A stretch of DNA of 64,000 nt from Clostridia bacterium (GCA_017408485.1 JAFQUM010000022.1:1083-65082), one strand, 5' to 3'. Positions 60,356 to 64,000 are shown, numbered from the stretch's first letter. A program made the numbers and translations. The notes: generated by a model from the sequence alone, not told the origin.

Positions 60356-60772
60356 TTATGACCTTTTGCTGATGATCAGGTAGGAAAGCCAGTAAACCAG
60401 CACCATAAAGCAAACTGTTGCTGAAATGATCAAGGCTACTTGTGAGTAGTTGAGCACCTGAAGAACGATTATTACAAGGGCGGCTACAATAATATAGCTG
60501 AAAAAGGCAATGCCCCTTGCTTTGCTTGCTATAAAGATGCTACGCTCGTCGGATTCGGCGATCTCACGCTTTTTTATACTGTCTTCGCTCTTAGTAATAA
60601 GCTTATATTGGCGTATACGAGCGATACCTATAACCGCAAAGGCAAAGCCCAAGGATGACGCAAAGTTATTATCGTTTTTAAGAAACAAGGGTATTACTAT
60701 CATTGCAAGTCCAAGGATAATATACACGATGGCAACATAAAGGCGCACTTTTAGTTTTTTTCTGAAATCCAT
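60356..60772 (-). CDS. hypothetical 4-TM membrane protein co-transcribed with an XRE regulator
   Basis: 138 aa, located 2 nt downstream of the HTH gene. Confidence 0.5.
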   Translation of the reverse strand: MDFRKKLKVRLYVAIVYIILGLAMIVIPLFLKNDNNFASSLGFAFAVIGIARIRQYKLITKSEDSIKKREIAESDERSIFIASKARGIAFFSYIIVAALVIIVLQVLNYSQVALIISATVCFMVLVYWLSYLIISKRS

Positions 60773-60774
60773 TT

Positions 60775-60972
60775 TTACTCCTCCTCAAATATAAATACCT
60801 GCTCAATGGTCAGGCTGAAATACTTGGCGATCTTATGGGCAAGCTGAATCGAAGCGTTATACTTGCCGTTTTCAAGGGATATTATAGTCTGCCTTGTGAC
60901 GCCGACCGCATCAGCCAAATCTTGCTGAGTAACATTCTGCTCCTTGCGGAGATCTTTTATCCTGTTTTCCAA
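60775..60972 (-). CDS. XRE family helix-turn-helix transcriptional regulator
   Basis: 65 aa (LRKEQNVTQQDLADAVGVTRQTIISLENGKYN). TTG start 7 nt after GGAGG. Confidence 0.8.
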   Translation of the reverse strand: MENRIKDLRKEQNVTQQDLADAVGVTRQTIISLENGKYNASIQLAHKIAKYFSLTIEQVFIFEEE

Positions 60973-61039: not shown

Positions 61040-61122
61040 GTATATTTTACATTTTTATTGTGGAGTATTTTGGAAATCTCGAGGGTTAGAATCCCTCCTT
61101 ACAAATATCCATACCAAAAAAT

Positions 61123-61150
61123 AAAAACACCCACTACTGTGGGTGTTTTT
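61123..61150. terminator. bidirectional terminator-like hairpin
   Basis: AAAAACACCCAC-tact-GTGGGTGTTTTT. Confidence 0.6.
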
Positions 61151-61186
61151 ATTTTTTGTATAAAGGCTACGAAAAAGATATTTTTG

Positions 61187-61215
61187 TGGTTTGTATTAAG
61201 GATTCGAACCCAAAC
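61187..61215 (-). other. degenerate tRNA 3'-end-like remnant (T-loop GGTTCGAATCC ... ACCA)
   Basis: The minus strand reads CGTTTGGGTTCGAATCCTTAATACAAACCA. Thirteen nt (GGATTCGAACCCA on plus) are identical to the T-arm of the tRNA-Ser fragment at 61443..61455, but the T-stem does not pair properly. Confidence 0.35.
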
Positions 61216-61222
61216 GCAAAAT

Positions 61223-61390
61223 CACGCCAAAGGCGTGTATATCATCAATTCCGTAGGAATTGCATATCATCAATGCGGAGCATTGTATATCATCATTGCG
61301 AAAGAGGATACAGCCTGCGGCTGATGATATGCACCTTCGGTGATGAGATACACGCTAAAGCGTGATGATATACCATTGCTTTCGCAATGG
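61223..61390. repeat. array of seven 4-7-bp mini-hairpins interleaved with six copies of a 10-12-nt box (three YATATCATCA forward, three TGATGAKAT inverted)
   Basis: Boxes lie at 61238-47, 61263-72 and 61286-95 (forward) and at 61322-31, 61341-50 and 61363-72 (inverted). Hairpin stems are cacgcc/ggcgtg, aattcc/ggaatt, aatgc/gcatt, agcc/ggct, cacc/ggtg, cacgc/gcgtg and ccattgc/gcaatgg. Confidence 0.85.
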
Positions 61391-61392
61391 AT

Positions 61393-61429
61393 AAAAAAAT
61401 TCGACAAGTCGAAACTTGTCGAATTTTTT
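61393..61429 (-). terminator. terminator immediately 3' of the tRNA-Ser fragment
   Basis: A7-TTCGACAAGT-cgaa-ACTTGTCGAA-T6, a 10-bp perfect stem. Confidence 0.7.
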
Positions 61430-61484
61430 GGCGGAGAGTGTGGGATTCGAACCCACGTGGGCGTGAGCCCAAACGGTTTTCAAG
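61429..61484 (-). pseudogene. 3' half of tRNA-Ser(UGA): anticodon loop, long variable arm, T-arm, acceptor 3' strand, CCA (candidate att site)
   Basis: The minus strand reads CTTGAAA-ACCGT-TTGGGCTCACGCCCAC-GTGGGTTCGAATCCCAC-ACTCTCCGCCA. The matching 5' acceptor strand (GGAGAGT), the D-arm and the 5' anticodon stem strand are absent upstream, so tRNA identity ends exactly at the anticodon loop. Confidence 0.75.
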
Positions 61485-61514
61485 TTCTATGCGGCAAACG
61501 CACTTTGACGATTT

Positions 61515-61692
61515 TTATTAGAATTTAACGCCGTCTCTTGGAAGCCTCAAACATTTGATTTTACCGCATTTTTTCGACTTGTTTATTAGATAAATTCTGC
61601 AATCCTTGATAAGACAACATGTTCCACATTTTTATTAGAAATTATTAGAATTTTGGACTGTTTGTAATGGCTTTATTAGAATTTTATTAGAA
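61515..61692. repeat. cluster 1 of the TTATTAGAA motif (5 perfect copies plus 1 variant)
   Basis: Perfect 9-mers start at 61515, 61632, 61642, 61673 and 61684. The variant TTATTAGAT starts at 61583. Confidence 0.85.
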
Positions 61693-61824
61693 TTCAGGAG
61701 AAAAACAGCCTCAAAAAACGCAGATTATGAGGAGATCTCATTTTCAATCGGTCTAAAAAACCGTTGCGTGAAAAAACATCTTCGCTTAGAAACGAGTCGA
61801 GAAAAAATGTCAGTTGTCAGCTTT

Positions 61825-62295
61825 TTATAAGTATTCAAAGAGACCCTTTTGATTGATTTTTTCCAAGGTTTCCACGCTGACATTCGTTTCCTTTTCAAAG
61901 TCAAACAATGATTTTTTGAAATCTTTTACAGCCTTTTTCTTGTACGGTCCTTTCGTAACGATTACGTGACCTTCCGCGCGAAGCTCTTTTTCTTGAGAAT
62001 CGCCGTGCTCCAAATATCCTCCGAGAGAGATTTCGCGGTGTCTCGGAACGATATCAATGATCTTGATTATATAGTTTTGATCAATGTCGCCGAGATGCCG
62101 CATATTCATGGGAAGGCTATCAAAGCGGGAGATGTGCTGAACATTGAATTTTCTTGCAAGGAAGGCTTCAATATCTCTCCAATGTGTAAGTTTTCCAAAA
62201 GGAACCTGCATCAGCATATAATAATACACTTCTTGAGACAATTCGATACTGGTTTCTGCCGGAATAATTGTAACAATCCGTTTTTGATCATCCAT
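61825..62295 (-). CDS. MGMT-family DNA-binding domain protein lacking the active-site Cys (Atl-like)
   Basis: 156 aa. VPFGKLTHWRDIEAFLA ... VPRHREISLGGYL ... LRAEGHVIV parallels the IPxGxVxTYGDIA ... P(C/W)HRV ... L..EG pattern. Confidence 0.4.
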   Translation of the reverse strand: MDDQKRIVTIIPAETSIELSQEVYYYMLMQVPFGKLTHWRDIEAFLARKFNVQHISRFDSLPMNMRHLGDIDQNYIIKIIDIVPRHREISLGGYLEHGDSQEKELRAEGHVIVTKGPYKKKAVKDFKKSLFDFEKETNVSVETLEKINQKGLFEYL

Positions 62296-62548
62296 AGAAT
62301 TCTCCTTTTTGACACTCTCTTTAAAATTTTAAGTTCTAAGAGTTTCTATATTGCAATTCAATTATAACAAATCTCTCGAACCTATCAATGTAATGTGCTT
62401 AGTATGTAAAAAAGCTTAAGTACTAAATATGTAACTGCAAACAAGGGAGATCATCCTTTGAATTTGCTACAGCTTTTATGGAAAGTTCTTTGAACCCGAT
62501 CACTCACCATAATGGTGGGATATGCATTTTATGCTCGTGTCCTAACTA

Positions 62549-62588
62549 ATCTTGCACGAACTTACACGCGTGTAAGTTCGTGCAAGAT
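62549..62588. repeat. 40-bp perfect palindrome with no spacer
   Basis: ATCTTGCACGAACTTACACG|CGTGTAAGTTCGTGCAAGAT. Confidence 0.95.
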
Positions 62589-62836
62589 CGTACAAACCAT
62601 TTTACAAGTCTGTATTGCGCAGCACTTGTATTGCCTTCGCAGACCAGTTTGCCGGCTTTAACCATCTTTTGAAGCAAACGATACGCTTGAGGTCCTGATA
62701 CATGAAGCAGACTTCGATGTCTTTCCTTGATAAATTGTCCTTGGTTTTTGCTAATTTTAGAATTAGTTCAGTGTATCGTTGTTGTGACAGAGCAACGCAG
62801 AAAGAGTCATGTACAGCTATAATGCTTTTCTGGAAT

Positions 62837-63002
62837 TTATTAGAACTTATTGGAGCTTGATGTGTTTAACAAATGCGTTAACTTCAACGTTTTTTCGATG
62901 TGTATTTCTCGAAAAACTGCAAATTTCAATGTCGCATTTTTTTCTTGAAAATGAGCAGTTCTAATAAAAAATCTTAGAATTTTATTAGAACTCCTATTAG
63001 AA
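62837..63002. repeat. cluster 2 of the TTATTAGAA motif
   Basis: Perfect copies start at 62837 and 62982, and a perfect inverted copy (TTCTAATAA) at 62959. Variants start at 62847 (TTATTGGAG), 62972 (TCTTAGAAT) and 62994 (CTATTAGAA). Confidence 0.8.
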
Positions 63003-63409
63003 CTCCAGAGAATTAACCGAAAAAAACAGCAAAGTGTCAATACAAAATAGATTGGGGGCCACAAACCACATAGCCGTGTATTACGATGATAAATAAGCCT
63101 TCTTGAGAATTTTTTTCTGTGCTTCTAAATACTTGTTTTGCTTTGTAATTTGTATTAATTCTTTAATCTTGAAACAATGGAACTACAAGATGAAAGATTT
63201 TTTGTTTTGCTACCAACTTTTCACCATTATAGAACTATTCAATTTTATAATGGCTGTATTTTTTTGATATTTTTCAAATTATCAACAGGATTCAACAATA
63301 AAGTTTAAATATATTCACAATAGTTTTAGAAAGTGTGATGCTGTTATCATAGTAATATGTGGAAGAATGTGGTAGAATAATGTCGAATTAAATTTAGGAG
63401 GCATTATTT

Positions 63410-63688
63410 ATGAGAAATGAACTGAATTGTGTTTTGAAGGATTACTTACGAGCAAGATTGCAGGGAATCAAGTTAGAAAAATGTTATACTCAGTGGAACA
63501 TAGCACAAATCTTGCACATGGAAAGGAGAACTGTTGCTGGTCTTCTTCGGGGAGAACATTCAATGAACGGTTTAACAGTTGTTTTGTATCTTATTTACCT
63601 TGCAGAAGACCCTGTTTTGGAAATTGAAAATATGGCAAAGCTTTTTCAAGATGTACTTCAAGGTTCCGATTATGAAGGTGTTTCTTGA
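63410..63688 (+). CDS. hypothetical small protein, possible HTH
   Basis: 92 aa. AGGAGG RBS 9 nt upstream. The segment TQWNIAQILHMERRTVAGLLRGE looks HTH-like. Confidence 0.4.
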   Translation: MRNELNCVLKDYLRARLQGIKLEKCYTQWNIAQILHMERRTVAGLLRGEHSMNGLTVVLYLIYLAEDPVLEIENMAKLFQDVLQGSDYEGVS

Positions 63689-63701
63689 GGAGATTTTTAT
63701 T

Positions 63702-63914
63702 ATGTTTGTAAAAAAAATAGAATTAGATTACAGAATCCCCCGTCGAGTAACAACGATCCGAAAAATTACACAATATTACTTCCCGGTTTGCCCAAAATGC
63801 AATTGCACAATGGAGCGTGAGTATCAATCCTATTGTGATCGTTGTGGCCAGGCTTTGCGTTGGAAGGAGTTTTCTTTTGTAAAGGCATCTATTGATACTA
63901 AGGTCTATAAATAA
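63702..63914 (+). CDS. hypothetical small zinc-ribbon protein
   Basis: 70 aa, starting at an ATG after GAGGAG. Contains CPKCNC...CDRCG (CxxC-N13-CxxC). Confidence 0.4.
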   Translation: MFVKKIELDYRIPRRVTTIRKITQYYFPVCPKCNCTMEREYQSYCDRCGQALRWKEFSFVKASIDTKVYK

Positions 63915-63936
63915 AACGTAAATTAAAGATATTAAA

Positions 63937-63961
63937 GCCGGCTATAGTTATCGTAGCCGGC
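63937..63961 (+). terminator. hairpin after the Zn-ribbon ORF (weak terminator)
   Basis: GCCGGCTA-N9-TAGCCGGC with a poor T-tract. A new RBS (AAGGAG) and an ATG at 63991 follow. Confidence 0.3.
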
Positions 63962-64000
63962 GTAACATTTTATAAAAAGGAGCTTGAATAATGACATTCA

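Follow-up and report, generated by a model that had tools for sequence, protein, structure and literature searches.

What is the element at positions 61223 to 61390 of this DNA, in which small hairpins alternate with conserved boxes, and does its structure act as RNA or as DNA? A preliminary description of the window (the whole 64,000-nucleotide stretch analyzed here) had recorded seven mini-hairpins and six KGYATMTCATCA boxes, three forward and three inverted, and all of these are present on re-reading. The parts of the element and its flanks are as follows.

61115 to 61158: terminator I1, resident and bidirectional, a 20-nt perfect inverted repeat with A and T runs
61157 to 61222: left extension, holding CTACGAAAAAGATATTTTT, a T-loop-like pseudo tRNA 3′ end, and AAATCA
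61187 to 61216: the T-loop-like pseudo tRNA 3′ end (TGG..GGATTCGAACCC)
61223 to 61295, plus strand: left arm, made of hp1, hp2, and hp3, each followed by TGYATATCATCA
61223 to 61237: hp1
61239 to 61247, 61264 to 61272, and 61287 to 61295: forward ATATCATCA cores, with TGY directly before each
61294 to 61304: segment X (CATTGCGAAAG), complementary to the loop and 3′ arm of hp7
61305 to 61312: linker AGGATACA, of which xGATACA recurs at the same position in homologues
61311 to 61372, minus strand: right arm, made of hp4, hp5, and hp6 with inverted boxes
61322 to 61330, 61341 to 61349, and 61363 to 61371: inverted TGATGAKAT cores, reading TGATGATAT, TGATGAGAT, and TGATGATAT in that order
61373 to 61390: hp7 (CCATTGC-TTTC-GCAATGG), with a GAAA loop on the minus strand, holding X′ at 61379 to 61389
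61393 to 61429: terminator A (I2), the module's own bidirectional terminator, a perfect inverted repeat of A7, a 10-bp stem, and T6
61429 to 61486 (end approximate), minus strand: tRNA-Ser 3′ fragment, CCA end inward, with T-arm and acceptor matching in cmscan alignments

The repeat unit is a mini-hairpin closed by CA..TG, where CA ends one box and TG begins the next, followed by a constant 8-nt linker, YATATCAT; a linker-bearing unit is a hairpin plus TGTATATCATCA. On the plus strand, the left-arm loops are AAA, GTA, and GGA (hp1, hp2, and hp3, respectively). The right arm is read on the minus strand as a hairpin and then TGYATMTCATCA, with loops GCA, GAA, and TTTA. The center contains hp4, and the linker AGGATACA looks by eye like a degenerate fourth inverted box. 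The element as a whole is asymmetric, with hp7 and ATAAAAAAA at one end and AAATCA and hp1 at the other. All six box copies in the 64-kb window lie inside one 135-bp stretch; the remaining 14 one-mismatch matches to the box are scattered singles. The three-box pattern occurs twice here, compared with no occurrences in 100 shuffles, and folding of both strands, which had been proposed as a check, gave about −76 kcal/mol for each (z = −7.9 relative to shuffles). The arrangement of boxes and hairpins exceeds chance expectation.

Selection on the pairing of the hairpins had also been proposed, and the homologues described below support it. Among 139 unique homologue hairpins, 911 of 952 stem pairs (96%) are Watson-Crick. 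RNAalifold analysis of 29 “3+3” elements found 20 pairs that changed on both sides, and examples of double changes in stems include ATTCC/GGAAT versus ATTTC/GAAAT as well as ACAC, AAAC, AGAC, AGGC, and ATGC, each with its matching partner. The hp7 stem covaries as well, with both sides changed in 13 to 14 of the 29 sequences.

The boxes behave differently from the hairpins. The complementarities reported between forward and inverted boxes were confirmed by a repeat finder for the outer pair (11/11) and the inner pair (12 nt at 92%), and the middle pair reads 8/10 in the sequence, as reported. However, the nested box-to-box rod that had been built on them did not hold up. Its helices are 95.3% paired, yet 430 of 500 shuffles reach that value, and the 29-sequence alignment contains one compensated cell only. 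A.G mismatches sit in the middle of helices 2 and 3 in 14/29 and 12/29 sequences, respectively. Over all loci among the matches listed, the box helices have 64 one-sided variants and 8 discordant double variants against a single compensated one. An uncompensated inner-helix variant, usually TGATGAGAT in the right arm, is found in 35 of 38 “3+3” elements; the outer helix is perfect in 36 of the 38. We rejected the rod as a selected structure on the basis of the missing covariation, the conserved uncompensated variant, and the existence of single-orientation arrays. The boxes are conserved for their own sake and not for rod pairing, and we infer that the element is not a rod-shaped RNA held by box-to-box helices.

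The hairpin loops provide information on which strand is folded. They are mirror-imaged: the left arm has its GNA or GNNA loops on the top strand, whereas the right arm has them on the bottom strand. When all units are placed in the same orientation, GNA accounts for 43 of 86 triloops and TNC for 3, and GNNA accounts for 34 of 52 tetraloops, only 15 of those 34 being GNRA; of 138 hairpins, 113 are closed by a C-G pair. The d(cGNAg) and d(cGNNAg) motifs form very stable DNA mini-hairpins. By this rule, the loop types suit DNA at least as well as RNA, with which they are also compatible. Both the mirror-image arrangement and the lack of a purine preference at the third position of GNNA lean toward DNA or toward use in two directions. 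Of the 952 pairs, the top strand has 9 that are G:U and the bottom strand 14, and a further 18 are mismatched in other ways. We withdrew this scarcity of G:U as evidence for DNA, given that the neighboring terminator stems are equally Watson-Crick (96% in 56 unique terminator A stems, in which one strand has 6 wobble pairs and the other 8). A common Watson-Crick signature fits anything that folds on both strands.

A further pairing links the center of the element with its end. Segment X is complementary to the loop and 3′ arm of hp7 at 11/11 positions in 44 of 72 loci among the matches listed, and at 10/11 in 15 more. X occurs as 26 sequence types, and noncognate X pairs peak at 6 to 7 of 11. 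The alignment gives 99.5% pairing over seven X:X′ pairs, with double changes in 43 cells, a result reached by 0 of 500 shuffles, and slid registers are only 21 to 44% paired. X and X′ covary. Since X is complementary to the 3′ arm of hp7, it would compete with the stem of hp7 itself.

The window copy is no singleton, as the proposed search for homologues established; related elements number at least 100 in genome contigs and at least 100 in metagenome contigs. The three-box pattern was found at no fewer than 120 loci (at least 120) in contigs of the GTDB one-genome-per-species set, nearly all of them in metagenome-assembled genomes (MAGs) of gut or rumen Clostridia (Acutalibacteraceae, Oscillospiraceae, “Eubacteriales,” Ruminococcus, and Christensenella). 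Metagenome contigs contain at least 66 loci with arrays that have self-complementary spacers. Viral contigs scanned with the same pattern yielded two real relatives; many other viral matches were ordinary tandem repeats and were discarded. Among the matches listed, the main architectures are +++--- and +++--, arrays with two orientations are always convergent and never divergent, and single-orientation arrays are a minority. Arrays can expand, as in a locus with 12 direct units (L139), and complete elements can follow one another, as in a locus with three head to tail (L257). The module is multicopy within genomes, and similarity between copies in one genome covers about 235 nt, consisting of the terminator, the arrays, and about 24 nt more. 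Arrays are also found away from tRNAs, one of them in a phage, where it separates the replication module from the packaging module. From species to species, each position, whether box or hairpin, retains an identity of its own. The feature is therefore one copy of a family of ~235- to 275-bp noncoding modules at tRNA and tmRNA 3′ flanks in gut and rumen Clostridia, whose hosts among the matches listed are mostly Acutalibacteraceae and Oscillospiraceae MAGs.

The element had been said to match nothing that could be named, but an orphan motif in Rfam, Gut-1 (RF01706), has the same architecture. A scan of the whole window against Rfam, which had been suggested as a check, gave nothing at the gathering threshold and one informative match below it: the Gut-1 model aligns with 61281 to 61354 on the plus strand at 20.8 bits (E = 0.26), compared with a gathering score of 50. 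Other subthreshold Rfam matches in the window are mostly terminator look-alikes. Gut-1 was found in human-gut sequences and described as probably a noncoding RNA (Weinberg et al., 2010; PMC2864571). Like the present family, it has tandem variable hairpins with a short constant linker (GUGAAAU or GUGAUAU), followed by an inverted arm, and it is of gut-bacterial origin. In locus L114, a Gut-1 copy scoring 63.7 bits lies directly after tRNA-Ala and its terminator and consists of four units of GUGAAAU plus a variable hairpin, followed by inverted ATTTCAC units. The Gut-1 seed sequence BAAZ01025322.1 likewise runs from a tRNA CCA end through a terminator to a GUGAUAU arm and an inverted AUAUCAC arm. 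The two families occur behind the same tRNAs, and in L114 and L134, a ATATCATCA-type module adjoins an older Gut-1-type array behind a single tRNA.

There are also differences. The linker of the present family is AUAUCAUCA/UGAUGAUAU, and the window copy has YAUAUCAU(CA)/UGAUGAUAU in place of GUGAAAU or GUGAUAU within the same hairpin-linker architecture. The order of the arms relative to the tRNA is opposite, such that the GNA-loop orientation diverges in Gut-1 and converges on the center in the present family. From the score of 20.8 bits against 50, the different linker, and the opposite arm order, the present family is a sister of Gut-1 and not a member of it. The Rfam model of Gut-1 covers one arm only, and tRNA linkage, mirror symmetry, and insertion behavior do not feature in the consulted passages of the original description (PMC2864571). 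A literature search found nothing beyond that description.

The surroundings of the modules follow a fixed layout: the last tRNA or tmRNA gene, its CCA end, a bidirectional terminator, an arm of three to four units, the center, and an inverted arm. Beyond the inverted arm, some modules have a T-loop-like remnant, and others have small cargo genes with an outward-facing TTGATT-17-TATAAT promoter. In the orientation of the window, the right flank nearly always consists of GGATAAAAAAA, followed by a terminator hairpin with TTTTTT after it and by a tRNA 3′ end in reverse complement, read from CCA. Among the matches listed, 39 of 71 genome elements and 17 of 29 metagenome elements that could be evaluated have a complete tRNA or tmRNA gene whose end is 51 to 63 nt from the last box; the other elements have tRNA 3′ fragments at this place, as in the window, or other sequence. 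Adjacency of such arrays to tRNA-Ser or integrase genes had been suggested as something to look for. The tRNA part of this idea proved to be broader than suggested, with genes of 16 kinds adjoining the modules (tmRNA four times) and always pointing at the hp7 side, and the integrase part failed, with no such gene among the 167 neighboring ORFs described below. Operon ends occupied in several species include Val-Asp-Phe-Gly-Cys, Thr-Tyr, Gly-Arg-His(-Gln), tRNA-Arg(CCG), and tmRNA.

Two classes can be distinguished by the far flank. In class A, AAATCA is the reverse complement of a −35 element, TTGATT, and is located 16 to 18 nt (mostly 17) from TATAAT; this promoter, the only conserved one, is present in 22 of 72 loci among the matches listed, where it faces outward and serves genes on the tRNA strand. 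Class B, to which the window copy belongs, has an extension made of AAAAAGATATTTTT and a T-loop-like pseudo tRNA end, which is common to copies behind different tRNAs and tmRNA. The left extension of the window copy is kept beside different tRNAs and tmRNA in seven loci (L036, L070, L027, L034, L051, L084, and L100).

This layout bears on the possibility that the element is a stand-alone structured sRNA, similar to Gut-1, that is transcribed from the plus strand of the window, antisense to the tRNA, and ends at terminator A. It might fold into local hairpins and the X:X′ helix, or into the rod, and act as a sponge presenting single-stranded AUAUCAU linkers. The strong covariation of the hairpins and of X:X′ would be expected of such an RNA, and an A-run, hairpin, and T-run placed as a plus-strand terminator follow the element at 70 of 72 loci among the matches listed. 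Direct arrays elsewhere often precede terminators of the same orientation, and a conserved AAAAAGATATTTT in class B is a possible weak −10 region. The discoverers of Gut-1 judged it to be an RNA (PMC2864571). However, there is no conserved plus-strand promoter: a consensus scan found no sigma-70-like promoter facing into the window copy on either strand, and the class A promoter points the other way. The right-arm loops on the plus strand are the complement of the stable type, which a single transcript leaves unexplained, and inverted linkers within one RNA would mask each other. The rod form of the fold has the additional problem that it lacks covariation and has a conserved A.G mismatch. We consider an sRNA of this kind unlikely. 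The lack of a conserved inward promoter, together with the insertion behavior described next, leans toward DNA or toward use in two directions.

The preliminary description placed the element between two terminators and beside tRNA-derived, att-like sequence, which is correct, and this setting proved to define the family as a whole. In the window, terminator I1 forms the outer boundary of an inserted block; on the other side, the module abuts a tRNA end, the tRNA-Ser fragment, which a later insertion to its right has cut short. ARAGORN called no gene at this fragment and no complete tRNA in the whole window. The T-loop-like remnant and the tRNA-Ser fragment have the 13-mer GGATTCGAACCCA in common (61200 to 61212 and 61443 to 61455). 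These 13 nt of the T-loop are the only far-side match of the window copy to its own tRNA, as the acceptor part differs. The window copy is surrounded by other tRNA-derived fragments and later insertions.

Comparison of strains, taken as contigs that encode an identical neighboring 138-amino-acid protein, revealed that the left extension, the ornate element, and terminator A form a 273-bp block (61157 to 61429). The block is present in the window and in L146, L148, L150, and L151, and in L152 as far as its contig extends. In another strain of the species, L145 (GCA_017503045.1), it is missing, and terminator I1 directly abuts the tRNA-Ser 3′ end. Both junctions fall in runs of T5 to T6, so the ends of the block are uncertain by a few bases. 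A search at the ends of the indel (61157 and 61429), which lie outside the inverted arms of the element, found no clean terminal inverted repeats or target site duplications; an ATAAA repeat flanks about one-third of copies as judged by eye. The tRNA end next to the block differs among the strains and is a Ser fragment of 60 nt, a 19-nt piece of another tRNA-Ser, or a full tRNA-Leu. One block with three different tRNA ends indicates that the junction between terminator and tRNA is a recombination hotspot.

Direct repeats of the tRNA 3′ end were found on the far side of five modules (L064, L099, L106, L119, and L134). They are 17 to 56 nt long, run from CCA to the T-loop, anticodon loop, or D arm, and are found at distances of 38 nt to 1.4 kb. 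Where this is clearest, in four of the modules, the far tRNA copy is followed by a different terminator, which is what integration at a tRNA 3′ end leaves behind. No excised or circular forms were found among the metagenome contigs.

Alternatively, integrated elements may have decayed and left the module behind at the tRNA as a scar without function, in keeping with the position of the window copy among tRNA fragments and later insertions and with the absence of an encoded enzyme. We give this very little weight. In many species, compensatory changes have preserved about 40 base pairs, every box and hairpin position retains its identity, and the same loci are occupied from species to species.

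The element could also serve the host at operon ends, as a bidirectional insulator, a terminator booster, or a REP/BIME-like site for gyrase or a nucleoid protein. Polymerases arriving from either side would then meet the same stable hairpins and UGYAUAUCAU behind strongly transcribed stable-RNA operons. Such a role would account for the fixed place after tRNA and tmRNA terminators, at loci that are occupied in several species, for the mirror symmetry that makes each arm “sense” for incoming transcription, and for the Watson-Crick-only signature that the element has in common with the adjoining bidirectional terminator. The element is often directly upstream of a promoter, which it could shield, and its neighbors are ordinary housekeeping genes. 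On the other hand, the units lack a U-tract and hence are not canonical intrinsic terminators; terminator A has the features of one, but the hairpins of the units are followed by UGYAUAUCAU, and in a consensus scan only hp1 and hp4 were flagged as terminator-like, weakly and on the minus strand. An exactly conserved linker of 9 to 12 nt points to sequence-specific recognition and not to generic hairpins. Furthermore, the Gut-1-type relatives have their arms in the opposite order relative to the tRNA, class A loci have no transcription facing the left arm, and one strain (L145) does without the element. A host role at operon ends thus seems to us a rather improbable primary explanation.

The genes around the modules were searched for an enzyme that could move them. 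The commonest products among the 109 nearest open reading frames (ORFs; Pfam and PHROGs) are 23S_rRNA_IVP four-helix-bundle proteins (7), XRE regulators (5), and AraC regulators (3), and 58 more distant ORFs (Pfam) are housekeeping genes. None of these 167 ORFs encodes an integrase, recombinase, transposase, Rep, or Par protein. The search for an autonomous relative in this set produced only ordinary chromosomal genes, XRE regulators, and 23S_rRNA_IVP proteins.

These results also apply to the idea that the boxes are sites in duplex DNA, either arm-type sites for an integrase or excisionase or iterons for replication or partition, with palindromic spacers that are incidental. Six to seven conserved 9- to 12-bp boxes in two inverted sets beside a tRNA-derived core are reminiscent of such sites, and in a circularized minimal module, the arms would flank the tRNA-derived core. 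The phage copy, located between replication and packaging modules, is consistent with the same idea. However, the spacers vary, and the boxes are irregularly spaced at 19 to 31 bp with no helical phasing. The strict self-complementarity of the spacers, kept by compensatory changes, is not needed for duplex binding. There is no integrase, Rep, or Par gene within several kilobases of the related loci examined, and BLAST searches with the block found no match in the plasmid (PLSDB) and phage (INPHARED) collections. Duplex sites are accordingly a poor fit, and we regard this reading as highly unlikely.

Several known systems resemble the module in part. REP/BIME and REPIN elements of enterobacteria and pseudomonads are nonautonomous and probably function or move in folded, single-stranded form; like the present modules, they are extragenic palindromes in arrays and inverted pairs at operon ends, are multicopy, and show compensatory change. 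What is conserved and repeated in REP elements is the palindrome, with hundreds of copies, whereas here the palindromes differ from unit to unit, the linker alone is constant, the 64-kb window holds one cluster, and the location is specific to tRNA and tmRNA 3′ ends. We know of no RAYT transposase for the present family. Integron attC sites and the attP(+) site of CTX phage are recombined as folded single-stranded DNA. They too have imperfect inverted repeats with short conserved boxes facing each other on two arms, structure conserved over sequence, and conserved unpaired or mismatched positions that distinguish the strands. They differ in having R and L boxes, as opposed to the three to four boxes per arm and side hairpins found here, and the modules have no IntI or Xer context and no covariation support for box-to-box pairing.

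Integrase-less cis-mobilizable (CIME-like) islands and other islets at tRNA or tmRNA 3′ ends are similar in their integration at the tRNA 3′ end, with a direct repeat from T-loop to CCA or from anticodon loop to CCA that some of the related loci here also have, in their lack of a recombinase gene, and in their tandem accumulation; the presence/absence polymorphism at a tRNA 3′ end described above is of the kind seen with such islands. In contrast, the present modules are much smaller (0.23 to 1.6 kb) and are defined by a conserved hairpin array, their repeats vary in length, the “repeat” in the window is only T-loop-like, and no helper element was found among the 167 neighboring ORFs. A CRISPR array was rejected, as the constant part is 9 to 12 nt, the variable parts are palindromes of 11 to 23 nt, and the second half is inverted. 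By reasoning from anatomy alone, we also dropped ToxI-like antitoxin RNAs, k-turn and C/D-box RNAs, Fur and DnaA boxes, rolling-circle nick sites, group IIC introns, casposons, and Tn7-like ends.

The reading that we favor, tentatively and with somewhat less than even confidence, is that of a nonautonomous module that inserts at tRNA and tmRNA ends and whose arrays act as folded single strands bound by a putative factor. In the mechanism that we infer, a mini-island without an integrase of its own would enter by recombination at a tRNA 3′ end, using an enzyme encoded elsewhere; that trans-acting enzyme is hypothetical, given that no recombinase, transposase, or Rep gene occurs among the 167 neighboring ORFs. 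The arrays would work in folded, single-stranded form, with the left arm using the top strand and the right arm using the bottom strand, and these strands could be DNA or transcripts entering from each side. Once folded, they may form a platform in cis for a putative sequence-specific protein that reads the constant linker at the foot of the hairpin. Direct repeats of varying length are hard to reconcile with a single recombinase, and the occupation of the same loci in several species could reflect long vertical retention and a host function over mobility. The record as it stands also includes no excised circle, no true repeat of its own tRNA at the window copy, and some arrays away from tRNAs.

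The ATATCATCA-type modules and Gut-1 could together represent a new class of elements, one of DNA mini-hairpin arrays that are read on opposite strands, target tRNA and tmRNA 3′ ends, and spread without an enzyme of their own. We regard this broader proposal as possible, if on the doubtful side. If it is true, a recombinase, nuclease, or binding protein specific for hairpin and linker awaits discovery in gut Clostridia. Gut-1 has been in Rfam since 2010 as an orphan “sRNA” from gut metagenomes only, and it now has a larger sister family. Both families gain a genomic grammar, which comprises placement after the CCA end and terminator, mirror arms, a covarying long-range segment, gain and loss of blocks, tandem layering, and duplications of tRNA ends. 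What had been an RNA motif without an explanation thereby becomes a choice, open to testing, among a mobile DNA module, an element that affects transcription or topology at the ends of stable-RNA operons, and an sRNA. The modules are also a common source of small structural variation and of contig breaks beside tRNA genes in MAGs of gut and rumen Clostridia.

Composition changes on the right side of the ornate element, in which seven mini-hairpins alternate with six boxes (forward in the left arm, inverted in the right). Window positions 61487-64000 have a low GC content, 35-38% versus ~47% across the remaining window, and the onset lies exactly at the truncated tRNA-Ser fragment. This region contains at least 10 repeats of the TTATTAGAA type, at 61511-61700 and around 62830-63000, and probably represents an element that integrated later and bears arm-type sites. 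Its arrival would be the reason that the tRNA beside the ornate element is reduced to a fragment.

On the left side, the following features lie just ahead of the resident bidirectional terminator, I1:
60356-60772, minus strand, membrane protein of 138 aa (a DUF6442 match here, DUF2178 in the precomputed hits)
60775-60972, minus strand, XRE-family helix-turn-helix gene of 65 aa
61039-61011, strong promoter, TTGACA-17-TATGAT
61080-61114, plus strand, well-formed hairpin resembling a T-arm, GAGGGTTAGAATCCCTC, and after it TTACAAATATCCATACCA

XRE regulators are among the commoner neighbors of related elements, accounting for 5 of the 109 open reading frames found near them. The T-arm-like hairpin block stands immediately ahead of I1, facing the minus-strand tRNA, and is present together with I1 in two copies in L148, a strain of the same species. 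The block and I1 look like a further tRNA-derived module.

A second conserved sequence family is fused directly to tRNA fragments cut off at the T-loop and reads TTKYCC..GCTGCCGC...GGCAAAAACAGTCCACCGGACTGTTTT...TTCGAATCC. It looks like another type of small island, with the T-loop as its integration site, and was found at these sites:
L148, in window orientation, right of terminator A (the module's own terminator)
L146, another strain of the same species
L064, at the far end of the island
L119, a related locus

A gene found repeatedly in the first cargo position after the module's outward promoter encodes a 23S_rRNA_IVP four-helix-bundle protein of 114-119 aa:
L064, 1455-1814, minus strand; also in L045, L074, L088, L090, L097, and L106

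Elsewhere, members of this gene family have been described in intervening sequences within 23S rRNA genes, and the Pfam family includes Avd, an accessory protein of DGRs. The cargo gene of L064 is followed by an 85-aa membrane protein, and an identical N-terminus adjoins the element in L129.

Arrays of the type seen in the ornate element also occur on phage contigs. Five direct units, each a hairpin plus TGCATATCATCA, lie at 8644-8740 of L002, and the five-unit array is also found in L007 and L010; all three are IMG/VR phage contigs. On one side of the array is a replication module (primase-helicase), and on the other a terminator, after which come the terS, terL, and portal genes. The array does not adjoin a tRNA.

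Tandem expansions were found in L139 (1-359), with twelve direct units of which neighbors are near-identical, and in L257 (5517-6024), with three complete two-arm elements joined head-to-tail via GGATAAAATAATCA. These expansions are recent and indicate that arrays enlarge by duplication.

The box G variant TGATGAGAT (61341-61349 and homologues) is restricted to right-arm inner boxes in most elements, and a matching left-arm ATCTCATCA is almost never present. The variant is a conserved strand- or arm-specific mark.

Linkers also vary. Arrays with a third variant, TATGGAATCA, at 2135-2413 of L075 and around 4990-5060 of L025, adjoin arrays of the ATATCATCA type, and arrays with the GTGAAAT or GTGATAT linkers of the orphan RNA motif Gut-1 are nearby in L025 and L112. 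This suggests that the linkers are several “dialects” within a single superfamily.
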